From contig JALGVI010000034.1 in NCBI GenBank assembly GCA_029838215.1, positions 1 to 63,509 on the forward strand: a stretch of 63,509 bases of DNA, written 5' to 3'. The notes under the pieces were generated by a model that was not told the origin of the DNA, searched no databases, and saw nothing but the letters and a program-made list of their open reading frames with translations. Of the stretch, positions 34,526 to 46,611 are shown piece after piece (position 1 is the stretch's first letter; each line of letters opens with the position of its first letter). The position numbers and the translations under genes were made by a program. The stretch comes from Candidatus Helarchaeota archaeon (GTDB taxonomy: Archaea > Asgardarchaeota > Lokiarchaeia > Helarchaeales > RDOG01).

Positions 34526-35320
34526 TTATACCAATTGATATTTTTCTGAAGAGATCGTATATTTTTTTGCATGTTTTTTGAATGTCCTAGTACCACCGCC
34601 TTCGCATATGATCCGTTCTACTCTTTTTGCATCCAAGAATTTCATTCCACTTACCAGATCAATTCCCATCTTGAAAAACGGGTCCGGGAGCATGCTTGCA
34701 GTCGGTCCCAATAAAACCATCCTGACTGCATTCTTGCAATATTTTAACACGTCTTCGAGAGTTCTATTTACAAGCGTCGTTGCGGTGATGATGATCTTGT
34801 CTAATCCTTCAAGCATTTCAGGATTCGAATGAACGAATTCCTCGAGACCGTGAAATTTTAACCGTTCAATTACCAATAATTGCTTCACGCGTTTTTGTAT
34901 GCGTGGAATCATTGGTTGAAAGTACCCGACCATTCCAACAGTATCGTCAGACTTGAGATCTAAATGATCGAGAACGTCGGTTGAAAAGTCCAGCTCGATT
35001 TTTTGTTGCTGGAAGTAATCTTGAGATAAAGCGTTTATTGCAGAAATGCCAAGAACGCGATCGAGGTGATGGTCGGACAGAGCAAGATCCATGAGATTCA
35101 ATAGGTGTTCTTCACCATATTTTCCTGCCTTCACGCGCGTGCTGCACGTGATCGGGTTATATTCCTGTGTCAACGTGTTGCAGACACCAAGAATGTCATT
35201 CATTAGACGAATGCCAGAATAGCTCAATCCAAAAAAGACTGATTTTACACGCGGTATTTCATGATCGGTATAGAGTTGCTTTAGGAGATTAACGAGATCC
35301 GACAGGAAATCCATCATCAT
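34526..35320 (-). CDS. DUF364 family (Rossmann-like) protein
   Basis: GISAINALSQ, VGMVGYFQP, IITATTLVNRTL, LLGPTASMLP, GGGTR. Confidence 0.85.
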   Translation of the reverse strand: MMMDFLSDLVNLLKQLYTDHEIPRVKSVFFGLSYSGIRLMNDILGVCNTLTQEYNPITCSTRVKAGKYGEEHLLNLMDLALSDHHLDRVLGISAINALSQDYFQQQKIELDFSTDVLDHLDLKSDDTVGMVGYFQPMIPRIQKRVKQLLVIERLKFHGLEEFVHSNPEMLEGLDKIIITATTLVNRTLEDVLKYCKNAVRMVLLGPTASMLPDPFFKMGIDLVSGMKFLDAKRVERIICEGGGTRTFKKHAKKYTISSEKYQLV

Positions 35321-35362
35321 TCACTTGAATTCTTAGAAGTTAAGAATACTGGAAAAAAGAAG

Positions 35363-36502
35363 TTAGAGGTGCGAGTTGAGAAGCTCGACTACATCCATCA
35401 TTTTCAATGAGGAGTTTGATTTTTCAATTGCATCCGAAAGATTCCTGCAACAGAATGGACAGGATGTGATGAGCATGTCCACGCCCAGAGCTTCCGCTTC
35501 TTTTATTCTTTCGGTTGCAATTTCCACGGACCAGTCCTTGAAGGCGGATTTCACGCCGCCGCCAGCGCCACAGCACCAAGCATTTTCACGATTTCGCGGT
35601 AACTCAATAAGAGAAACACCCGGAATTTTTTGAATTAATTCACGGGGGGAATCAAAGATTTTCGAATGTCGCCCTATGTGGCAAGGGTCGTGATATGTAA
35701 CTTTCAGGTTTTCTTCCTTGAATGGTAGAGCATCAATTTTTTCAAGGAGAAAATCGGTCACGTGCTTGATTTCGAATGGTAATTCACCAAATAGTTTGGA
35801 ATAATCCTTAGTTAGGGTTCTATAACACCCCGCACAAGAGGTCACGACCGTTTTCACACCCAGATCCTTGATGGTTTGGACGTTATGTTCGGCGAGTTTT
35901 TTTGCAACGTTCACCTGTCCCGTTCGGAGAAGTGGAGATCCGCAACACCATTCATCAGGACTTACGGTATAATCAATTTTTAGTGCTTCGAAAAGTTTTA
36001 CCGTTGCTTTTGCGAGATTTTCTTGTCGATAGGAGGACGTGCATCCGACAAAGTATAGAACATCTGCCTTTTCGGGAAGATCCTTTTCTAACCATGCAGA
36101 GCGTTTTTCGTGAGGTTCGTTGTATGGATTATTTTCTCGAGCGATCATGTCAGGAAATGTCTTATGAGCTTCGAGTTGGCATCCTGCATTTACGGCATCG
36201 GCACGCAATGCTTCGAATATGTCAATGAGATGGTCTGCAACTTCCTGCTCGCATTGTGCTGCGCAGTTTCCGCAAGTTGGGCAAGCGAATATGACGCGTG
36301 CGATTGATGGAGACCATTCCAGTTCTTTCTTGTAGATGGCATTTGCCAACCAGACGCGACCGCTTGACCAGTAAGTTTCAAAGATGAATCTTTCACCAGA
36401 TGGACAGGAGAGAGAATAATCCTTGTAGAGCGATTTACAGGAACCGCATCTCCCACAACGATAAAGCCATTCTTTAACTTCTTCTAAGTACACTGCCATC
36501 AC
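35363..36502 (-). CDS. Fe-S oxidoreductase (GlcF/HdrD-like: 4Fe-4S dicluster plus two CCG domains)
   Basis: CGRCGSC, CPTCGNCAAQC, YFVGC, CCGSP, SCAGC, YHDPCH, CCGAGG, SCPFC. Confidence 0.92.
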   Translation of the reverse strand: MMAVYLEEVKEWLYRCGRCGSCKSLYKDYSLSCPSGERFIFETYWSSGRVWLANAIYKKELEWSPSIARVIFACPTCGNCAAQCEQEVADHLIDIFEALRADAVNAGCQLEAHKTFPDMIARENNPYNEPHEKRSAWLEKDLPEKADVLYFVGCTSSYRQENLAKATVKLFEALKIDYTVSPDEWCCGSPLLRTGQVNVAKKLAEHNVQTIKDLGVKTVVTSCAGCYRTLTKDYSKLFGELPFEIKHVTDFLLEKIDALPFKEENLKVTYHDPCHIGRHSKIFDSPRELIQKIPGVSLIELPRNRENAWCCGAGGGVKSAFKDWSVEIATERIKEAEALGVDMLITSCPFCCRNLSDAIEKSNSSLKMMDVVELLNSHL

Positions 36503-36503
36503 C

Positions 36504-37985
36504 TTAAAAAGTAAACCTTCCAGGGTTCATTATTCCATTTGGATCTAATAGCTTCTTGAGATTGTTGAAAAGAGCAATAAATCCGGGATCCGACCGTTTG
36601 AAAACCTTTGATGCAGCCCAACTAGGCATTTTATATGGAATTCCTCCGACATCCAAGACCACGTCAACGAGTTCGTCGCAAATTTTCTTCACGGTTTCGA
36701 TGTCGCCTTCGTCATTTTTATTAAAAGGTAGGAAAAACCGCATGACTGCATAATGTCCGCCTTTCATTGGACGGTGAAGGACACCGGGAACAAAACCATA
36801 TTTTTCAATGATTTTTAACCCTCGATTACAACCGTTGATCCACTCATTAAGTGGAACATAACTGCCCACCCAAGTTAGACCTCCACCTTGACGCAAGTCA
36901 TACATTGGTGGTAATTGCATGGGTAGGTCAAGGACGCGATCGATCTTCTTTCCAATTTCGCCGAAGTCGCCAGTCCGAACAACCAACAAGTTAGTTTTGT
37001 TTTTCTTGTTGGATTCGCTTACCAGCTTTTCCAAGACTTTCCACTTTTGCTTGAGTTCCTTGTCGTTATTAGCTCCAATTGTAATCCATGTAAGAAAGAA
37101 GCTTTTCTCTTCCATGTTATCAATCTGAACGATAGACTGAATGAGATCTTTCATTTCGTCCAGGGGTAAAAGACCATTTCCTAAAGTAAAATGAAAGAGA
37201 CCGCCTGCTAACTCATCGCAGATTTCGGCGCGGGATAGTTTGTAAATGAAGTCCGTGCCGTATACATCACCAGGACCATTCACTGCAAACAAGATCCCAT
37301 TTGCAGAGACAGGAGGGCGGGGCCAGAGATTAATTCCCGCCTTTGTAACAATACCTAAAGTACCTTGTGAATTAATGAATATGCCACCCAAATTTGGCAG
37401 GGGATGTAGCCCAAACCAATAGGGCGATGTAGCTGCTGAGCCTGTTTTGATGATTTCTCCTGTAGGTAAAACGACTTCCAAGCTAGATACCATGTCAGAC
37501 ATTGAACCATGTTTATGGCTCAAATTTCCCAATCCTCCCATTATTGCGTTGACCAGAACCGATACGGACGGTGGTGCCATTGGAATGGAAACAGTAAGAT
37601 CAGGATGATTATCTAGCAGGTATTTTTTTAAGAGACCAAAAGAAACACCTGGTTCTACAACGGCAATCATGTTTTTCTCATCGACGGTTATGTTCCTCAT
37701 TCGCTTCATATCAATTATGATACCGCCTTTACGAGGAATGGCGAGTCCTCCAACATTCGCTCCTGCGACGAAAGGGGTTATGGGTATCTTGTATTTATTT
37801 GCAAGTTTCACGATTTCGACGATTTCGTCAACAGTAGAAGGCAATACAACAAATTCAGGATTGCCAGGAGGATTTTCAGTCATGTCACGTGCATAGTTCC
37901 ACAATTCTTCGGGACGATTTGATGCCCAATCTGAAGAACCCACGATATTTTCCAAATCCTTAAGGACTTCTACCAATATGATCAA
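36504..37985 (-). CDS. FAD-binding oxidoreductase (GlcD/D-lactate dehydrogenase/VAO family)
   Basis: VVLPSTVDEI, VVEPGV, LEVVLPTGEI, SQGTLGIVTK, LDPNGIMNPG. Confidence 0.92.
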   Translation of the reverse strand: MIILVEVLKDLENIVGSSDWASNRPEELWNYARDMTENPPGNPEFVVLPSTVDEIVEIVKLANKYKIPITPFVAGANVGGLAIPRKGGIIIDMKRMRNITVDEKNMIAVVEPGVSFGLLKKYLLDNHPDLTVSIPMAPPSVSVLVNAIMGGLGNLSHKHGSMSDMVSSLEVVLPTGEIIKTGSAATSPYWFGLHPLPNLGGIFINSQGTLGIVTKAGINLWPRPPVSANGILFAVNGPGDVYGTDFIYKLSRAEICDELAGGLFHFTLGNGLLPLDEMKDLIQSIVQIDNMEEKSFFLTWITIGANNDKELKQKWKVLEKLVSESNKKNKTNLLVVRTGDFGEIGKKIDRVLDLPMQLPPMYDLRQGGGLTWVGSYVPLNEWINGCNRGLKIIEKYGFVPGVLHRPMKGGHYAVMRFFLPFNKNDEGDIETVKKICDELVDVVLDVGGIPYKMPSWAASKVFKRSDPGFIALFNNLKKLLDPNGIMNPGRFTF

Positions 37986-38418: not shown

Positions 38419-41400
38419 ATGGCACGATTATATCTTGCTGCTGAAGGTGATGATGACATACCTGCAGAAATCGTATTAATTTCTGAGAAGAATCTTAAGA
38501 AATTAGGGATTTCTGAGGGTGATCAGATACAATTTGAGGACGTTCCTGCCAAAATAGAAGGCAATGCTACAGTTCAAATTGCGGGAGTTTCGGACGATTC
38601 TTTAGTTGTAAATCAACAATTATATGATGATTGGTCAGATAGATCGGAATGGTTTGGAACCATTGAGGTACGTGCACTTAAAAAAGAAGAGGCTCCTAGT
38701 AAAGTATCCGTTTCCGAGCCTGTTTCGCCTGAACCTCCCGCTGCACTTCCAGTTGCAGAGCCCACACCTCCTGAACCTGAGCCGGAACCTCCCGTTACAC
38801 CTCCGGTTGCAGAGTCAAATCCTCCTGAACCGGAACCTGAACCTCCCGTTACGCCTCCGGTTACGGAACCGTTACCTCCTGAATCAGAACCTCCAGCCAC
38901 ACCAGAAGTTATACCTCCACAAGAAATGCCCTCAAAGCCCACAACACCAGGAATGCTACCATCTTCCCAGGGAACCAGCGACATTTCGTGGGCACCATCA
39001 CGTGAACATGAAAAAATCGAGCAATCTGGACTAATGGACCTCATCCCAGAAGAGGAAAAAGCAAGATTGAAAGCAGAACCGGATTCGATACCTTCATCAG
39101 TTTCAGTTTCGGAGACTCCTGTTTCAGAAGCCGATGAAGGTGGTCCTGCAGAAGGCGGTGACATTGATTTGGATTCCTTATTAGATTCCTTGATCGAACA
39201 GGATATTGGAGAAATGACAATACCGGATCAAGAAGTCGCACCTTCTGTAGAAGTCGAGGATATTAACACCATCCCTACACCAGCACCTCCAGTCTCGGTT
39301 CCGACTAAACCTGCACCACCATTAGTTGAATCTACACCAACGACACCCGCACCTTCACAACCGGCACCATCAATACCCGTCAAGCCGTCGGTCCCCACGA
39401 CTCCCGCACCTTCACAACCAGCACCGTCAATGCCCGTCAAGCCGTCGGTCCCCACGACTCCCGCACCTTCACAACCAGCACCGTCAATACCCGTCAAGCC
39501 GTCGGTCCCCACGACTCCCGCACCTTCACAACCAGCACCTTCAATACCCGTCAAGCCATCGGTCCCCACGACTCCCGCACCTTCACAACCAGCACCATCA
39601 ATACCCGTCAAGCCGTCGGTCCCCACGACTCCCGCACCTTCACAACCAGCACCATCAATACCCGTCAAGCCATCGGTCCCCACGACTCCCGCACCTTCAC
39701 AACCAGCACCTTCAATACCCGTCAAGCCAGTGACCTCATCGACAACAACAATCCCAACAAGTCAGGTTAGTTCCCAAATACCTGCTTCTGCACCACAAAC
39801 AAGCTATCCTTCTGCTCCAGCTTCCTATCCTTCAGCAGGAGTGGCTTATCCTGCAGCACCTGGAAAAGAAATTGAACGACCTGAAGAATACTTAACACTA
39901 ACAATCGAATTGCAACACGGTTTGGAAGGTAAGATTCTCGTCAGCCAGGAATCATTTAATTTTCTATGTCCAGATCCGCTGAATCCTGCGCCTGTAATTT
40001 TTGAGGATCCCCAAACAGGGAACAGGGGGGGTGCCATTCCAATTGCGGCAGCAATTCCCAATAATGTCATTCGAATGGAACCCGAAACTTATGAATCATC
40101 GGATATTACATCCTTGCAGGTAAATGTATGGTCTTCAGTTCCCAAAGAGCCCCCCATAGTAAAAACAGACCGATTAGATTTAAAGGTACGAATAACTCAC
40201 AAGGGCATTGGTAGCACGGTTGTTTTGAGTAAGAGAAACTGTCTTTCTTTAGAAGTGGAAACAGGAGATATTGTCACGTTTGAAGACGAATTAATTGGAG
40301 CATGGGGTGCAGGGTATATAAAGATGGATGAATCGGGCTCGGTTACAGATGACGTAATTGAGATAGAAAGTGAGATCTTTGAAGCCACGGGAATTGGTAG
40401 CGATGAAGTCGTTGTCAGGCGAAATGATAAAACGGTTGTTCCTCTCCAATCTTTAGAATTGGGAATTTCTCCAATCCAAGGAGACAACATGTGGGATACG
40501 ATTACTCAAGTTCGAAACAATAAAGAATCAATGAAGCAATGGTTATCTCAATTTCTCATTTTCAAGGGATTAAAACTACGGTGGACGGATGCAAATGCCG
40601 CCATCAACATTCTCTCAACGGTTCCAGACTTGAAGGGAGAGATTTTAGCAGCTCCAAAGATCACGTCGAGCTTACAATTGAAAGCAGAAGGTCTTGTCAC
40701 GTTTAATGCTATTCTAATTATAGACATTTCAGCATCCATGCTTGCACCGGACTTGTTATGCAAGAATATTGCTCCTGCAATTGAAGGCATTAAAGCCGCA
40801 ATGGATAACGAGGAAGTCACACGATTTTTAGGACGATTTCGTGAAGGCGTCAACGTTCCGAGACGACTTGGAGCAGCATTTGCAGCACTATTATTTCTGG
40901 CGGAAAAAGTTGGACGCGGCTTCGGCGAGAAGGTATCAATTATTAGATTTGCAGATGACGCAGAAATCCTTCAATTTCCGGATGCCCAGAATAATGTTCA
41001 GCCTTATTTTGATTCTGCAAGTGGAAAGCACGGCATTCTTGAAACGGCAGCCATTCAAATTGTTGATAAAATCGGAAATTATAAGGGACTTGCAACGAAC
41101 ATGTCAAAGGCTTTCATAAAGGCAAAAGAAGTACTTGACCTTTATAGAAGCATTGAAGGTGACGATGAAAAGCCCTGCATGATGATTTTGTTAACTGATG
41201 GATATCCTACCGATGAGGCAGAATTTATCAACGCAATAAATCAACATTTCATAGGAAATCCGAATTTGGTATTATACATTCTTGGAATTGGGACTACTAA
41301 CGAGAAACTAATGGTTGATATTGCTTCTAGAAGCGGTGGCGAGTTTTTCGTTCCTGATGATTTAGGCAGTCTTCTAATTTGGTATTCGAAACGTGCTCGA

Positions 41401-41457
41401 GACCTTGTAGTGAAGTTAAAAGGCGGAAGAACAGCTGGCTTCACTCGAGTATATTAA
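38419..41457 (+). CDS. Cdc48-N-like (double-psi barrel) domains, Pro-rich linker and C-terminal vWA domain
   Basis: VLISEKNLKKLGISEGDQI and VVLSKRNCLSLEVETGDIV resemble Cdc48-N barrels; complete MIDAS (IIDISASM, ATNM, LLTDG); no Walker motifs. Confidence 0.78.
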   Translation: MARLYLAAEGDDDIPAEIVLISEKNLKKLGISEGDQIQFEDVPAKIEGNATVQIAGVSDDSLVVNQQLYDDWSDRSEWFGTIEVRALKKEEAPSKVSVSEPVSPEPPAALPVAEPTPPEPEPEPPVTPPVAESNPPEPEPEPPVTPPVTEPLPPESEPPATPEVIPPQEMPSKPTTPGMLPSSQGTSDISWAPSREHEKIEQSGLMDLIPEEEKARLKAEPDSIPSSVSVSETPVSEADEGGPAEGGDIDLDSLLDSLIEQDIGEMTIPDQEVAPSVEVEDINTIPTPAPPVSVPTKPAPPLVESTPTTPAPSQPAPSIPVKPSVPTTPAPSQPAPSMPVKPSVPTTPAPSQPAPSIPVKPSVPTTPAPSQPAPSIPVKPSVPTTPAPSQPAPSIPVKPSVPTTPAPSQPAPSIPVKPSVPTTPAPSQPAPSIPVKPVTSSTTTIPTSQVSSQIPASAPQTSYPSAPASYPSAGVAYPAAPGKEIERPEEYLTLTIELQHGLEGKILVSQESFNFLCPDPLNPAPVIFEDPQTGNRGGAIPIAAAIPNNVIRMEPETYESSDITSLQVNVWSSVPKEPPIVKTDRLDLKVRITHKGIGSTVVLSKRNCLSLEVETGDIVTFEDELIGAWGAGYIKMDESGSVTDDVIEIESEIFEATGIGSDEVVVRRNDKTVVPLQSLELGISPIQGDNMWDTITQVRNNKESMKQWLSQFLIFKGLKLRWTDANAAINILSTVPDLKGEILAAPKITSSLQLKAEGLVTFNAILIIDISASMLAPDLLCKNIAPAIEGIKAAMDNEEVTRFLGRFREGVNVPRRLGAAFAALLFLAEKVGRGFGEKVSIIRFADDAEILQFPDAQNNVQPYFDSASGKHGILETAAIQIVDKIGNYKGLATNMSKAFIKAKEVLDLYRSIEGDDEKPCMMILLTDGYPTDEAEFINAINQHFIGNPNLVLYILGIGTTNEKLMVDIASRSGGEFFVPDDLGSLLIWYSKRARDLVVKLKGGRTAGFTRVY
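38746..38900 (+). repeat. In-frame 54-bp (18-aa) imperfect repeat, about 2.5 copies
   Basis: PVAEPTPPEPEPEPPVTP / PVAESNPPEPEPEPPVTP / PVTEPLPPESEPP. Confidence 0.8.
39337..39729 (+). repeat. In-frame 57-bp (19-aa) tandem repeat, 6 full plus 2 partial units
   Basis: CCCGTCAAGC starts at 39376, 39433, 39490, 39547, 39604, 39661 and 39718; unit PVKPSVPTTPAPSQPAPSI. Confidence 0.97.
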
Positions 41458-41631
41458 TTTTTAAACAAAAATCTTTTTTTATTTTGACTGATGATGATTT
41501 TCCAATAATCTCAAAGTTGATTTTAATAAAAAAACGCTCTTTTCAAATCACTTAAAAAAAATCAAAAACATAAATATAAACGAATCAAGATCTGTGATCT
41601 CCTGCTAATTTAAATCAAGGAAAGTCGCAAG

Positions 41632-42864
41632 ATGGTACAAGACCCTCAAACTCCAACAGTTCAGGAACCGCCTCCGCCAGAAATTCCTGCCGCACAAGTC
41701 TTTTTAGAAAGTGTTCCAGAAAAGATACTGATTAAGGGAAAAGAATATACCTTGAGGGTTAAAATATTAAACATAACTGATGCGAATATTGACGTCTTCA
41801 TCAAATATCGAATTAATGGATTCAAAATTCTCAGTGTATCTCATCCTGCGGGTTCTGGACAAAAGGTGTCAATTGAGCCGTTAAGCTCTATAATGTATGA
41901 CATCAATTTTACACCGGAAATAGAGGGACCACTTCAACTTGAAATCGAGCTTAGAGGATGGAAGAAGCTTTGGGATCCAGTAGAGCGGGAGTATGAAGTT
42001 GAATATGAAGTCGAAGTGGAATATGATGTTCCTTATGAGGTACAATATGAAGTAGAAGTCGAGGTTCCAATACCACCAGAAGAGCTTCCGCCAGTGCCTC
42101 CAACAGAAGATGGAATTCCAGCACCGCAAATACCACGAACCAGAATTGAAAAACAGATTCGCACGAGAACTGAAATCCGTAAAGAAAAACGAGTGGAAAA
42201 ACGGATTAGAATCGAAAAAAGACTTGAATATGAAGTGCGGTTTGAAGAGTTCGCCTTGCATCAAACAGCAGGTTACATGGAAGCAGTCATCTCTGGAATT
42301 GAGGAATTGGATACATTTATTACACAGGGCGATGTAAGTACGGAGATCGTAACGGATATCGGAGCTGCATTAAATTCAATAATTTTTTACTTTCCAAACA
42401 ATCAATTACCGCATGATGCGAACCTATTGCGGTCAATCAATAAGGAAATGTTTCAGAAAACGGGTAAGAACTTCCTTTACTTAAACTATGCCATTTCAAA
42501 TGAATTCACGCAAAAGGAACAAAAAATCATAAAGCAAGGAATTGACAAGTTCTTGCCACGGCTTGATAAATCGAAAAGATTACTCATCTTGAATCTGGAT
42601 TTCCTTCCAAAAATGATGAAACCGACCATTGTCATTGGTGCTTCTCCACGATCGTTTTCACTGCAGAACACGCTTGCTTCTACATTTGATGATCAACTTG
42701 ACATTATTGTAGATGGTGATGTTTTTGCAGGGGGAAATATCTACGAAGTCATTCAGCAACTAACGAGTAATCATGAAGCGGATATCGTGAATATTGCTTT
42801 ATCTGCAGATTTTATAGAAAATCATGATTTGTTTATTAAAATGATAGATCCATTTGTTCAATAG
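41632..42864 (+). CDS. Ig-like domain with inserted acidic/Pro/basic segment plus degenerate N-formylglutamate-amidohydrolase-like C-domain
   Basis: LRVKILNITD...YDINFTPEIEGPLQLEIEL is Ig-like; LNLDF..PTIVIG...FAGGNI..IVNIALS resembles the FGase fold without its metal-ligand His residues. Confidence 0.55.
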   Translation: MVQDPQTPTVQEPPPPEIPAAQVFLESVPEKILIKGKEYTLRVKILNITDANIDVFIKYRINGFKILSVSHPAGSGQKVSIEPLSSIMYDINFTPEIEGPLQLEIELRGWKKLWDPVEREYEVEYEVEVEYDVPYEVQYEVEVEVPIPPEELPPVPPTEDGIPAPQIPRTRIEKQIRTRTEIRKEKRVEKRIRIEKRLEYEVRFEEFALHQTAGYMEAVISGIEELDTFITQGDVSTEIVTDIGAALNSIIFYFPNNQLPHDANLLRSINKEMFQKTGKNFLYLNYAISNEFTQKEQKIIKQGIDKFLPRLDKSKRLLILNLDFLPKMMKPTIVIGASPRSFSLQNTLASTFDDQLDIIVDGDVFAGGNIYEVIQQLTSNHEADIVNIALSADFIENHDLFIKMIDPFVQ

Positions 42865-42877
42865 ATGTGACCTAACA

Positions 42878-44374
42878 ATGAGTGAAGAATGGGAATTTGA
42901 TGAAAAAAACCCAAAAGAGTTAATCTTTAGTCATGGCATGGAATGCGAGCTTGCCATGCTTGATGTTAATGGACAACTTCCTTCGGGCGAAATCATGCTA
43001 CAACTTTTTAAAAAAATCGTTGAAAATGCTCACCACGCTCTTATCGAAATTTTGCAGTCAGATTATTGCCCCAAGCTCATCAAGAAAAAACTAGTAGGCA
43101 TGCCACAATTGACTTATACGGACGAGAAAGGTGATGTTGTTGTCCAAACATATCGTATTGGCGGAAAAGATGTAACGGTCGAAATTTTCGGTCGCGATGG
43201 GAATGTTGCGAGCATTACTTACATTTTAGAAGTTGTCACGCCTCCGTGCACGCACCTTGACGAACTGACTTGGTGGTTAAAAACCCTTTTTACCGTTGCT
43301 GAGCAAGTCATGGTACCTAGCAACCTATATCTTTTATCCACTGGCATTCCTTCATCAATTAAAGAATACCTTCGAGGGCTTTCTTATGCAGATCATCATC
43401 ACATGAATGCCTTTAAGGATGACCAAGAACGAAAGAAAATCTATAACATGTTTCGTAATTTCATTCCGCATTTAATCGCGTTATCTGTCAACTCCCCTTT
43501 AATTAATGGAATGCCATCAGATGATGTAAAAGTCATGGGAAACACGGCTGATCCAAAAGCCAAGTTGCGGTATGCAGCTCCGGGATGCTTACGAAGCATT
43601 CGATTGAAAAATAACGTTTCTATGTTATCTCGAAATGATCCACGTGTTTTCATCCCGTGGTTAGGACCTGAACAGGGATATAACCCAGATTATTTTTGTC
43701 AGGTGATTCAGAAGGCATCGCTAGAAGATGCGAAGTTTCAAGACCTGTTTCCCTTTACAGATTGGGGAACCATCGAATTTCGCGTGTTTGATGCACCATT
43801 ATCCATCAATAAAAGGATTGGTTTTGCAATTTTACTCCAAGCTCTTGCTTTAAAAGCGAGAAAATTATCGATCGTTCCAGACGTGGGATCAGAATGCTTG
43901 GTTACAAATCGAACGCAAGTCATCCAGCGTGGGTTATTCGGGAGTTTTCGAACTGATCAAATCCTTCAAATTGATGATGAGGAATTTCGGGAATACTACG
44001 TGGGAAACCCCCCTTACAAATATGCATTTCAGGCAATTCAGGGACTATTAAAATACATCACGCCAGAACTCAAGGAAATGAAATACATAAATAAAAAACT
44101 TTACAAGAAATCGGGCGGTATCTCACCATTTTTGATTCCAATATTCCTTTCGGTATTTGGTGACGTTGATCTTGCAATGGCACCGTTTGGAGATTCTGAA
44201 TTCCAATTGCTTCTCTATAACCATTTCCAGAAAAAGAATCCGGGCGTGCCTCCCGGACCCCAAATACTTCAGAATTTGATAAAACTCACGTTTAAGGCTT
44301 CAAAAGATCCATTTTTCAATCCAATTGGTGGAGAGCTGAATTTTAAGAAATCAATGAAATGGTTAAAGGTTTAG
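42878..44374 (+). CDS. Glutamate-cysteine ligase family 2 (GCS2/YbdK-like carboxylate-amine ligase)
   Basis: GMECE, LEVVTPP, DHHHM, ALSVNSP and WGTIEFRVFD motifs; start taken at MSEEWEF (track start 42854). Confidence 0.85.
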   Translation: MSEEWEFDEKNPKELIFSHGMECELAMLDVNGQLPSGEIMLQLFKKIVENAHHALIEILQSDYCPKLIKKKLVGMPQLTYTDEKGDVVVQTYRIGGKDVTVEIFGRDGNVASITYILEVVTPPCTHLDELTWWLKTLFTVAEQVMVPSNLYLLSTGIPSSIKEYLRGLSYADHHHMNAFKDDQERKKIYNMFRNFIPHLIALSVNSPLINGMPSDDVKVMGNTADPKAKLRYAAPGCLRSIRLKNNVSMLSRNDPRVFIPWLGPEQGYNPDYFCQVIQKASLEDAKFQDLFPFTDWGTIEFRVFDAPLSINKRIGFAILLQALALKARKLSIVPDVGSECLVTNRTQVIQRGLFGSFRTDQILQIDDEEFREYYVGNPPYKYAFQAIQGLLKYITPELKEMKYINKKLYKKSGGISPFLIPIFLSVFGDVDLAMAPFGDSEFQLLLYNHFQKKNPGVPPGPQILQNLIKLTFKASKDPFFNPIGGELNFKKSMKWLKV

Positions 44375-44390
44375 AAAATCGCATTCGAGA

Positions 44391-45923
44391 TTGACTCCAA
44401 TGATAATATCAGAGATTTATAATGCCCAGACGAAACAGCTCATCGAAAGAAGAAATATTCTCATAATTGACGGGCATTCGCACATGGGAAGTGACGAAGA
44501 CGGTCAAAAGATGATGAATCCGCTAGCACCAGGCGGTACGTATGATTTTTATGCACGTTTTCAGGCTAAATTAAAGCAAAAAATGCAAGCAGAACAATTC
44601 TCATATCAGGTTAATAATATCATTTACAGCTTTCGCATTGCGCCATTTCCATATACTCATGCTATCTTTCAGAAGATGGCCCATATTTGTCAATGTGGAA
44701 AACACAAGCAGATGTTCCAGAGCATGAATAATTCGTGGCTTGTTGACCAAGGAGTTGTATTTCCCTTCCATGATGTCTTTCGAGATAAACGACCTGAGGC
44801 ACTTTTTAGAGCTTCGAATTATAATATAGCTCGGAATACAACGACTTTTCCAAATTCTCTTCGATTAATTGGATACGGAAGATGTGATCCTCAAGAAAAA
44901 GAGAAAGCCGTAAACGAAGTCAAGTTTGGCGCAGAGGTATTGGGACTTCGTGGATGGAAATTACACCCACGTAGCGAGTTGTGGCTTGATAAGGTCCAAG
45001 AACCCTTCGTGATAGATGTATTGATTGAGTTGGCGAAACATTCCATGCCCGTGCTTTTCGACACGCGGGGTAAAAAATCCATTTTTGATATCTGGGAAGC
45101 CATCAAGTTGACGAGAAAGGCATTAGAACGCATCAACAAGGATTTGGTTCCCCACTTGAAGGTAATCATAGGGCATTGCGCCGCAGGAAACATCGGAGAT
45201 GAGAATATTTATGAGGTCATTGCAGATCCGAATTCTATTGGCGAAATTTCCATGATGCACGGAGGAGCATGTTCGCAATTTTACTTGGGATTCATGAATT
45301 GGTATAAACAGCGGTATCCAAACGCTCGGAGATGGAGTACACACCTGATTTTTGGCTCAGATTATCCATACTTCTTCGAGAAGCATGCCGCTGATAACTT
45401 GTTTTACTTGATGAGTCCCCAATTCATGCAAAATGGTGGGACTTTAGACGACTTTCAGAACATAATGGGTCTTAATGAGATCCGTCTTTTACCAGAATAT
45501 GGCTTTCAACAGGTTCAGGAAACGGATTTTCCGAAAGCAAGATCGGTACTTTTCTCGCAAGTAAATGATGTATCCAGCTTGGAAATGGCAGGAGAATCAC
45601 TTGCTGCTTTAGTAGAATATAATTTGGTTGACATTCGAAAAATCTTATATATTTTTCAAGGAGATTACAAGAATTTTGGAAACAACATCTTGATTGAAGT
45701 AAGTCCCAAAAAGGATGCCAAAATACGGTCCAAAATACTCGCCCTTAATTTCATTAGTAATGCTGTTAAACTACTTAAAGTCCTCAGAAAAGGAGACACG
45801 TTCCGACCATTGGGAGGCTATAAATTCTTCAATTACGATGACAAGCAATTTTTAATGCAAGATGCAAACCTGTGCGAAGCAGCAGTTAATGCTTTCCACG
45901 TTTTAAAGGAAGCATATCAATAA
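44391..45923 (+). CDS. Metal-dependent amidohydrolase (TIM barrel, amidohydro_2-like) with C-terminal extension
   Basis: IIDGHSH, GWKLHP, VIIGH and IFGSDYP motifs. Confidence 0.88.
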   Translation: MTPMIISEIYNAQTKQLIERRNILIIDGHSHMGSDEDGQKMMNPLAPGGTYDFYARFQAKLKQKMQAEQFSYQVNNIIYSFRIAPFPYTHAIFQKMAHICQCGKHKQMFQSMNNSWLVDQGVVFPFHDVFRDKRPEALFRASNYNIARNTTTFPNSLRLIGYGRCDPQEKEKAVNEVKFGAEVLGLRGWKLHPRSELWLDKVQEPFVIDVLIELAKHSMPVLFDTRGKKSIFDIWEAIKLTRKALERINKDLVPHLKVIIGHCAAGNIGDENIYEVIADPNSIGEISMMHGGACSQFYLGFMNWYKQRYPNARRWSTHLIFGSDYPYFFEKHAADNLFYLMSPQFMQNGGTLDDFQNIMGLNEIRLLPEYGFQQVQETDFPKARSVLFSQVNDVSSLEMAGESLAALVEYNLVDIRKILYIFQGDYKNFGNNILIEVSPKKDAKIRSKILALNFISNAVKLLKVLRKGDTFRPLGGYKFFNYDDKQFLMQDANLCEAAVNAFHVLKEAYQ

Positions 45924-45946: not shown

Positions 45947-46348
45947 TCAGCGATTCAGGATTTGGTCTGGTGTGGTGTATTTATTTTTAGGAAGCCAAGC
46001 AAAATCCTTGACATTGCGCGTGACGAGAATCATGTTTCGGAGAACCGCCGTTGCTCCAATAAGACAATCTCTAAAATAAAATGAAGCTCCTTCTTTTGTA
46101 TCTTTAAAAGACATAGCCGCTTTGATTGCTCGCTCTGCAATGGATTTCGTAATGTTTTCATTTTTAATTTTTAGCTCTTTAAGCACTTCCAAGAATAAAT
46201 TCCATTTTTGCCTGACATAATATATGTAGCCTAACTCCAAATAGATAATACTATTAATAAAAAGTTGAATTTTAGTAGAAGTTTGATTTTTTAAATGGGA
46301 AAGTAATTGCTTTTCGTTAAAAACGCAAGTATCAAGTAATAGTTTCAC
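45947..46348 (-). CDS. vapC: PIN-domain (VapC) toxin
   Basis: LLLDTCV, YLEL, FRDCLIGATA, LVTRNVKDF. Confidence 0.92.
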   Translation of the reverse strand: MKLLLDTCVFNEKQLLSHLKNQTSTKIQLFINSIIYLELGYIYYVRQKWNLFLEVLKELKIKNENITKSIAERAIKAAMSFKDTKEGASFYFRDCLIGATAVLRNMILVTRNVKDFAWLPKNKYTTPDQILNR

Positions 46349-46611
46349 GATTCATTCCTCAATGCTTTATTTTGAAATGAACGTCTAGTTCCCAAAATGG
46401 TATCTTGAAATTCTTCATCCATAATAGTACAAAATTCATCTAAAAGCTCGTTAAACGAAGAATGTTCTGTGCTTTCGGCGGTTTCACGATTTTCTTGAAT
46501 TGAATGCATTATTTCCAGTAACTTTCGAATTACATCATCCATTGTTTCCCCTGGTTCTTTTAAACCATTTAATTCTTTCCAAGTATCTTCATTAACATGG
46601 ATTGAGGTCAT
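46345..46611 (-). CDS. Antitoxin (RHH-type, VapB-like)
   Basis: TSIHVNEDTWKELNGLKEPGETMDDVIRKLL; 4-bp overlap with the PIN gene. Confidence 0.85.
   Translation of the reverse strand: MTSIHVNEDTWKELNGLKEPGETMDDVIRKLLEIMHSIQENRETAESTEHSSFNELLDEFCTIMDEEFQDTILGTRRSFQNKALRNES

Follow-up and report, generated by a model that had tools for sequence, protein, structure and literature searches.

Which chemistry could bring together a carboxylate-amine ligase, a von Willebrand factor A (vWA) protein, a protein with a hydrolase-like domain and a member of an amidohydrolase family? The question is raised by four genes, here named A, B, C and D, which lie one after another on the forward strand at positions 38419-45923 of a 63,509-nt stretch of DNA, referred to as the window. 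The window belongs to a metagenome-assembled genome of Candidatus Helarchaeales, an order within Lokiarchaeia. Our analysis showed that the four genes are functionally linked in an old, strictly co-inherited module centred on an amide-bond ligase. As to the function, we tentatively favour the possibility, rated somewhat below an even chance, that the module marks a protein or peptide through an amide bond, A and B serving as targeting or scaffold subunits.

Gene A (38419..41457, 1012 aa) encodes double-psi beta-barrel (DPBB) domains and a vWA domain, gene B (41632..42864, 410 aa) an immunoglobulin (Ig)-like domain and a catalytically dead domain of the PghP/FGase fold, gene C (42878..44374, 498 aa) a divergent GCS2/YbdK-type ligase and gene D (44400..45923, 507 aa) a divergent Amidohydro_2 metalloenzyme. 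The lengths of the last two refer to the ATG codons at 42878, which is the recorded protein start, and at 44400; alternative TTG starts at 42854 and 44391 would give proteins of 506 and 510 aa respectively, and in the case of D the orthologues favour the ATG. The original prediction had described four co-oriented genes spaced by 174, 13 and 16 bp, and both the open reading frames (ORFs) and the spacing were borne out, the C-D distance becoming 25 bp if D starts at its ATG. Strong conservation in relatives shows all four to be real genes, and chance ORFs were ruled out on the same ground. The A-B intergenic region (41458..41631, + strand) carries an oligo-T run after the stop codon of A and, some 50 nt ahead of the start codon of B (ATG), a stretch that is AT-rich and TATA-like; given these signals, B, C and D likely constitute a separate, tightly packed transcription unit, with A as a neighbouring unit. 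A look-up of RNA or DNA sequencing runs containing this stretch returned none.

A gene-neighbourhood survey confirmed that the genes stay linked in other genomes, as had been anticipated. B, C and D were adjacent in all of the 16 Lokiarchaeia loci examined. The position of A varies within this class: it adjoins B-C-D only in the taxonomic order of the window, lies 4 kb off in family f5 and, in family f4, is found 10-100 kb away or on a different contig. Frey-, Jord- and Asgardarchaeia show the gene order D> A> <C, with C pointing towards the other two genes. Family f25 has a co-directional D-C-A arrangement, family f30 a C-D pair with A 8 kb away, and in Thorarchaeia D adjoins A while C lies about 10-12 kb from the pair. 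A chance adjacency of the four genes was ruled out by this conserved linkage.

The distribution of the genes followed the same lines. A survey of 251 Asgard genomes placed each of C, D and A in families f2, f4, f5, f9, f10, f11, f22, f25, f29 and f30, in addition to f1, the family of the window, and none of the three gave a match of family strength in the remaining 17 families, among them f8 (0/26), f15 (0/19) and f17 (0/10); as these genomes are related to each other, the co-occurrence is to be read as a pattern and not as a statistic. The module is present, mostly in a single copy, in most of the Loki-, Thor-, Jord-, Frey- and Asgardarchaeia genomes sampled. When a single genome was scanned for each species, relatives turned up in 233 species, every named one being Asgard. 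The module is mainly Asgard-archaeal and vertically inherited. One divergent ligase relative (P0141) is labelled Thermoplasmatota, and the N-terminal 240 aa of this protein are not B-like. Within family f5, three genomes of genus g11, one of which is the closed 4.4-Mb genome G219, displayed a weak A-like match (E 1e-33), and since C and D were unmatched in all three, including the closed genome, the module has probably been lost in this genus.

The C, D and A trees displayed the same deep split into two clades, designated types I and II. Type I comprises the second set of Frey-/Jordarchaeia, f30 and f25; type II comprises the first Frey-/Jordarchaeia set, Thorarchaeia, f29 and the Lokiarchaeia class, with Thorarchaeia sampled for the C tree only and f29 placed in the C tree only. 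Family f9 belongs to type II in the C tree only, being a long branch beside type I in the D tree and unresolved in the A tree. Frey- and Jordarchaeia carry two complete paralogous C-D-A sets (loci L029 and L030 of genome G075, L032 and L033 of genome G046), together with a third A paralogue elsewhere. Since the trees share the split and these lineages keep both complete sets, the module has been duplicated and inherited as a unit.

The association between A and the ligase was further underlined by a natural gene fusion. The metagenomic protein P0167 is a single 962-aa ORF, in which an A-family DPBB-vWA region (aa 8-408, E 2e-54) is followed by a complete ligase (aa 434-904). Moreover, the divergent neighbour of the giant ligase protein P0162 (2783 aa) is an A-family gene (E 3e-76). 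The conserved neighbourhoods in several gene orders, the same family-level distribution, the congruent trees and the A-C fusion thus demonstrate that A, B, C and D are functionally linked.

The gene encoding P0167 is located at the end of a 99.8-kb JGI metagenome contig (L128:1-10905), by four genes of the N6/N4 DNA methyltransferase family. Further genes nearby encode Mom, a TGT/DpdA-like protein, QueC and QueF, which point to 7-deazaguanine DNA modification, as well as TIR and SLATT proteins, and the surroundings look like a viral or defence-island setting. This gene neighbourhood is the sole hint in our analysis that the module might be a conflict or defence system, modifying invader or self proteins during virus attack, a reading that agrees with the general occurrence of vWA domains in conflict systems. 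However, a module that is mostly kept as one copy per Asgard genome, whose trees follow class-level groups and whose surroundings are stable and of housekeeping type fits such a role poorly, and no relative was found in a viral contig collection. We consider a role in conflict very improbable.

The catalytic centre of the module was then sought in gene C, which had been predicted to encode a GCS2 ligase with intact metal and ATP motifs. The protein reached 22.3 bits against the Pfam GCS2 model (PF04107, cut-off 21) over one 32-aa stretch, its orthologues scoring 30-33 bits, and 46 bits against the NCBIfam model of YbdK (TIGR02050, cut-off 176.4); every equivalog model remained far below its cut-off. 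At the level of sequence families, C is therefore best placed inside the GCS2 superfamily but outside the named YbdK and GshA families. A profile of C matched the structure of E. coli YbdK (1r8g) at E 1.8e-7 with the GxExE, HxH and ExR motifs aligned. The motifs are encoded on the forward strand at 42932-42955 (G-M-E-C-E), 43391-43405 (D-H-H-H), 43490-43510 (N-S-P) and 43769-43795 (T-I-E-F-R). Residues E30, E32, H181, H183, N213, S214, E308, R310 and D313 are invariant in 15 Lokiarchaeia sequences, and the equivalent motif positions are likewise invariant in 15 non-Loki sequences, in agreement with the predicted integrity of the active site.

The structure model of C, although of low confidence (predicted local distance difference test, pLDDT, 61), pointed in the same direction, as the best Foldseek matches were 1r8g (E 1.2e-7) and Salmonella YbdK (1tt4), followed by the plant glutamate-cysteine ligase (GCL) 2gwc, by GshA and then by PafA and Dop. 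An exhaustive search with the C profile among 1.84 billion protein representatives returned only 273 clusters at E 1e-3 or better and, because of this low number, the C clade is small and distinct.

The absence of a glutathione synthetase from the neighbourhood, also part of the original prediction, was extended to the whole genome, where neither a canonical GshA nor a clear glutathione synthetase (GshB) was found and C is the sole GCS2-type gene. Canonical glutathione biosynthesis is improbable and was rejected as the simple reading, since C scores very low against the family models, keeps constant partners of a non-metabolic kind and takes part in gene fusions. A broader small-molecule pathway has to be weighed more carefully: C might produce a gamma-Glu-Cys thiol buffer or a gamma-glutamylated amine of the Puu/Ipu type, D might hydrolyse or otherwise convert the product, and A and B might be regulators or assembly factors. 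The uniqueness of C in a genome devoid of recognisable glutathione enzymes, the nature of YbdK as its nearest solved relative, the common pairing of a ligase with a hydrolase in gamma-glutamylation pathways and the preference of the D family for small molecules are all consistent with such a pathway. On the other hand, no conserved dehydrogenase, oxidase or transporter accompanies the module from lineage to lineage, the curated cut-offs of YbdK and GshA lie far above the score of C (46 versus 176 bits), and the ligase strictly co-occurs with a vWA/DPBB docking protein, to which it is once fused, and is joined elsewhere to very large non-enzymatic regions. On balance, we regard the small-molecule pathway as rather unlikely.

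The regions joined to the ligase deserve a separate description. Non-Loki Asgard archaea have the ligase at the N-terminus of a larger protein of 980-1400 aa, whose C-terminal extension has no Pfam match and showed an insignificant likeness to complement C3 MG domains (E 0.25-0.45) and a weak one to the Ig-like domain of B (hhalign probability 28%). The ligases of Lokiarchaeia family f4 (L017-L028) begin with a head of 60-100 aa that is disordered and enriched in Lys and Ser, with runs of K, and that is missing from the lineage of the window; this head could receive the mark, bind acidic partners or serve as a localisation signal. A group of giant metagenomic proteins of 2200-3800 aa (P0151, P0155, P0162, P0170, P0177, P0178 and P0188; L044-L046) carry the ligase domain near the C-terminus and almost no other recognisable domains, with an HhH motif in P0162, and in L044 the ligase gene is followed by the gene of a 2619-aa WD40 protein. 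In other lineages, the non-enzymatic sequence fused to the ligase thus amounts to 500-3300 aa. Overall, the large regions to which the ligase is repeatedly joined include Ig-like, helical and HhH parts as well as the disordered heads rich in Lys, and the proteins reach a total of 3800 aa.

Gene A had been described as a Cdc48-N-like/vWA protein, and we indeed found a vWA domain with a complete metal ion-dependent adhesion site (MIDAS) and a DPBB barrel that is probably of the VAT-N/FwdD kind. The protein consists of a DPBB-like barrel (aa 1-87), disordered Pro/Thr-rich tandem repeats, two further barrels (aa ~491-572 and 586-668), a helical linker and the C-terminal vWA domain. The Pfam VWA model (PF00092) was matched at 24.3 bits (cut-off 23.8) and CDC48_N (PF02359) weakly, at 15.1 bits and E 0.027 (cut-off 35.1). 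The orthologue profile matched the archaeal vWA structure 5a8j at E 6e-9 and the DPBB barrels of FwdD (7e-4), of designed DPBB proteins (8e-4) and of VAT-N 1cz4 (3e-3), and the N-terminal barrel copy resembles an internal one (hhalign E 1e-4, probability 58%).

All of the 15 orthologues compared, drawn from 8 families, share the MIDAS residues DxSxS...T...D. In the window they correspond to D-I-S-A-S at 40723..40737 (aa 769-773), to the T of GLATNMS at 41086-41106 and to the D of LLTDG at 41188-41202, all on the forward strand. The part of A conserved throughout the phylum is confined to one barrel and the vWA domain (aa ~590-1012); the protein of the window has two more barrel units and a Pro-rich tandem-repeat region of about 400 aa, a linker that varies in both length and sequence between orthologues. 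This region is encoded by a 57-bp repeat present in 6.8 copies at 96% identity (39340..39728, + strand), giving a Pro/Thr/Ser-rich linker, and by a second one of 54 bp in 2.9 copies (38727-38883). The high repeat identity suggests a recent expansion. The strongly negative GC skew observed at 38-40 kb is likewise due to these tandem repeats.

As vWA/MIDAS proteins often serve the maturation of metalloenzymes, A might be an assembly or metal-insertion factor for D, similar to the vWA partners in chelatase/MoxR systems, and the ligase might act separately on a cofactor or metabolite. The adjacency and common direction of D and A in Thor-, Frey-, Jord- and Asgardarchaeia would fit this explanation. 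Nevertheless, no AAA+ partner of the MoxR or chelatase type occurs in any locus, the fusion partner of A in P0167 is the ligase and not D, and A adjoins giant ligases with no D nearby. A maturation role is therefore improbable in our judgement, and we return to the interpretation of A as a subunit that directs the ligase towards its target.

Gene B encodes an N-terminal Ig-like beta-sandwich, as indicated by several sub-threshold matches of Ig type, a variable middle part and a C-terminal domain of about 215 aa (42217-42861, + strand). In the lineage of the window, the middle part is an alternating acidic/basic stretch (41983-42222, + strand), with Glu-rich alternation at aa 118-146 and a basic segment at aa 169-197, and in Lokiarchaeia family f4 it is replaced by about 300 aa of helical repeats. 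Since the Glu-rich hairpin is restricted to the window's own lineage, it cannot be a conserved substrate of the module, and this candidate was ruled out.

The C-terminal domain had no Pfam match. Its structure model (pLDDT 79) gave the phage poly-gamma-glutamate hydrolase PghP (3a9l, E 1.3e-5) as top Foldseek match, with YndL also matching. The VIA comparison returned the FGase-family structures 2odf (Z 9.7) and 2q7s (Z 8.8) and YndL 5onj (Z 8.6), scores that are tied with those of M18/M42 aminopeptidases, pyroglutamyl peptidases and other phosphorylase/hydrolase-like folds. Language-model features of B placed the domain with the same PghP/FGase families. Among enzymes, the modelled domain thus comes nearest to PghP, YndL and the FGase family, which cleave gamma-glutamyl or N-acyl-glutamate amides. 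Among 24 sequences, two glycines were the only nearly invariant positions and no His, Glu, Asp or Cys was conserved; because of this lack, the domain is catalytically dead. The fold model and the missing catalytic residues agree with the earlier description of B as a protein with a Glu-rich strand and a degenerate FGase-like domain.

A homologue of the dead domain (hhalign probability 91%, E 1e-6; hidden Markov model E 1.6e-4) is encoded by a gene of 215-260 aa directly upstream of the non-Loki Asgard ligases. No B-like domain was detected in the type I loci (f25, f30 and the second Frey-/Jordarchaeia set) or among 150 cluster representatives. In one locus of Lokiarchaeia f4 (L129:3138-9586, G204), B (aa 1-473) is fused in frame to C with loss of both the dead domain and the Lys-rich head, and a 1129-aa ORF is inserted between this fusion and D; it could be a real deletion variant or an assembly artefact.

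The likeness of B to PghP and YndL raises the possibility of a polymer machine, in which C extends a chain of gamma-linked glutamate (or of another amino acid), either free or attached to a primer protein, B retains this chain through its dead domain, A grips the carboxylates of the chain with its MIDAS and D shortens it. The carboxylate-binding ability of MIDAS sites and the Lys-rich heads of some ligases may be accommodated by this scheme. However, known poly-gamma-glutamate synthetases are Mur-ligase-type and not GCS2-type enzymes, the fold match of B, tied as it is with peptidases, holds at the superfamily level only, and B is undetected in type I modules. Polymer synthesis has, in our opinion, only a small chance of being correct, and the marking of a protein or peptide is preferred in what follows.

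Gene D had been assigned to the amidohydrolase family, and both its membership of Amidohydro_2 and a complete metal site were found. The protein of the window scored 17 bits against PF04909 (cut-off 26.4) and the orthologue in L029 reached 63.9 bits; all of the 100 nearest named Atlas clusters carry PF04909. No variation was seen in the metal site residues D27, H29, H31, H192, H262 and D324, either among 16 Lokiarchaeia sequences or, at the same positions, among 17 sequences spanning both module types. The corresponding motifs are located on the forward strand at 44469-44489 (DxHxH), 44958-44975 (KLHPR), 45165-45188 (GHCAAG) and 45351-45374 (GSDYPYF). An additional C-terminal domain of about 130 aa has no assigned fold. 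A Lokiarchaeia-only profile of D had no match in the PDB, and with a wider profile the nearest solved structures were decarboxylases, weakly matched at E 0.02-0.2. Characterised members of PF04909 are mostly decarboxylases, hydratases and lactonases. Judged by its conserved residues, D thus looks like an active mononuclear-metal TIM-barrel enzyme.

How might the four proteins work together? We propose that the module builds an amide bond on a macromolecular target, be it a protein, a peptide or a tail on one, and that it probably processes or removes the bond too. Four features speak for a macromolecular target: in other lineages long non-enzymatic sequences are fused to the ligase, the f4 ligases bear Lys-rich disordered heads, the partners consist of docking and scaffold domains (vWA, DPBB, Ig-like, helical repeats) and no oxidoreductase or transporter is conserved with the module across lineages. 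C would be the catalyst, with ATP activating a carboxylate as an acyl-phosphate that is passed to an amine; by analogy with related ligases, the carboxylate is most likely the gamma-carboxylate of Glu. A would be a subunit or targeting adaptor of the ligase, whose MIDAS could hold a partner carboxylate via a metal ion and whose barrel or barrels would offer a second docking surface. B would be a non-catalytic adaptor, in which the dead domain may hold the acyl/gamma-glutamyl moiety or the ligase, and the Ig-like and helical parts may provide further scaffold. D would act on the product or substrate, possibly hydrolysing the amide. In this scheme we infer the acyl donor, the acceptor, the reversibility and the roles of the non-catalytic parts.

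The original prediction had distributed the roles of writer, eraser and reader to the ligase, the amidohydrolase and the A protein respectively. The ligase domain and the four-gene linkage stand, and the other two labels are weakened. A is joined to the ligase in one fusion and adjoins either the ligase or D elsewhere, which fits an adaptor or docking subunit better than a reader; being fused to the writer, it is more aptly called its adaptor. The term eraser for D is a guess, because PF04909 members are mostly not amidases and the nearest solved relatives are weak.

Several observations weigh against the marking of a protein or peptide. The analysis yielded no substrate, tag or acceptor, and no conserved small Pup- or ubiquitin-like gene was found beside the module among ORFs of at least 90 aa in 32 loci. 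YbdK-type enzymes can make gamma-Glu-Cys, a thiol used by some archaea, and the pocket of C is unreadable in a model of such low confidence. The family of D is not typically one of amidases and D matches its solved members weakly. The dead domain of B is not universal, being undetected in type I modules and missing from one Lokiarchaeia B-C fusion. Finally, the A-C fusion is one metagenomic observation, as the search for further fusions of this kind found P0167 only.

A more far-reaching version of the proposal would be an ATP-dependent covalent marking of proteins or peptides in Asgard archaea, independent of ubiquitin and Pup, in which a vWA/DPBB subunit and a dead, gamma-glutamyl-hydrolase-like adaptor direct a YbdK-like ligase to its targets and a TIM-barrel metallohydrolase takes the mark off again. 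Such a system would be older than the split of the Asgard classes and would by then have existed in two paralogous types. Taken as a whole, we hold this extended version to be doubtful.

The genes flanking the module in the window are unrelated and are not conserved alongside it. Upstream of A, a co-oriented trio on the reverse strand (34526-37985) encodes a GlcD-like FAD-linked oxidase, a CCG/4Fe-4S protein and a DUF364/DUF4213 'heavy-metal chelation' protein. Directly downstream of D, a VapBC-type toxin-antitoxin pair on the reverse strand (45947-46611) encodes a 133-aa PIN protein and an 88-aa antitoxin-like protein; this pair is not conserved with the module, and SfsA and alpha/beta hydrolase genes lie on the same flank. 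In other genomes, a Ras/EF-Tu-like GTPase (206 aa) and a 303-aa protein are encoded co-directionally just upstream of D-C-A in f25 (L034:12572-14125, and in the same place in L041 and L043), and a Roadblock/LC7 gene is located two genes downstream of D in Lokiarchaeia f4.

No closer relatives of eukaryotes than the Asgard archaea are known, and little of the regulatory protein chemistry of these archaea has been explored. The module offers a tangible and clonable candidate for a new system of covalent modification or, failing that, for a new ligase clade, and the known genes, boundaries and partners, together with the natural A-C fusion, open a direct experimental route. All protein matches are annotated in databases as 'hypothetical' or with the generic label 'glutamate-cysteine ligase family'. 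Literature searches on Asgard archaea with GCS2/carboxylate-amine ligase and vWA, whose coverage lay outside the 2009 amidoligase survey (Iyer et al., Mol Biosyst), found no publication on the module.

Among known systems, the YbdK/GCS2 ligases (PF04107; E. coli YbdK 1r8g, Salmonella 1tt4, plant GCL 2gwc) share their fold with C, and the GxExE, HxH, NSP and ExR motifs align. The module ligases differ in reaching only 22-46 bits to the family models, in being about 130-150 aa longer or fused to 500-3300 aa, and in always having a vWA protein and an Amidohydro_2 enzyme as partners. The vWA/MIDAS subunits (archaeal VWA2 5a8j, BchD/CobT, Rpn10) and the N-domain of Cdc48/VAT resemble A through its complete MIDAS vWA domain and through a DPBB barrel probably related to VAT-N and FwdD, respectively; however, A has no AAA+ ATPase attached or nearby, and its partner is an amide ligase, once fused to it. 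PghP/YndL and the N-formylglutamate amidohydrolases (PF05908, PF05013) have the alpha/beta fold of the B domain, which differs in lacking a Pfam match and any conserved His, Glu or Cys.

In the gamma-glutamylation routes (PuuA/PuuD, Ipu and the GlnA-like gamma-glutamyl-polyamine synthetases), an ATP-dependent ligase of the glutamine synthetase (GS) superfamily is encoded with an acyl-removing hydrolase, a pairing that resembles the one in the module. These catabolic routes differ in having their own oxidoreductases and transporters, a GATase-type hydrolase and no scaffold proteins. Pupylation, with which the original prediction had drawn an analogy through PafA, likewise relies on an ATP-dependent ligase of the GS/GCL fold, and in both systems there is an activity proposed to undo the bond and, possibly for the module, a protein target. 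The likeness holds at the level of the fold: PafA and Dop are among the structural matches of C at ranks 11 and 41, below YbdK, GCL and GshA, whereas C is nearest to YbdK, has no Pup-ligase family match in Pfam or NCBIfam and shows no sequence similarity to PafA or Dop. Moreover, no Pup-like gene was seen among ORFs of at least 90 aa, the putative reversing enzyme of the module is a TIM-barrel amidohydrolase and not a paralogue of the ligase, and the module includes vWA/DPBB and dead-hydrolase partners that are additional to the pupylation machinery.

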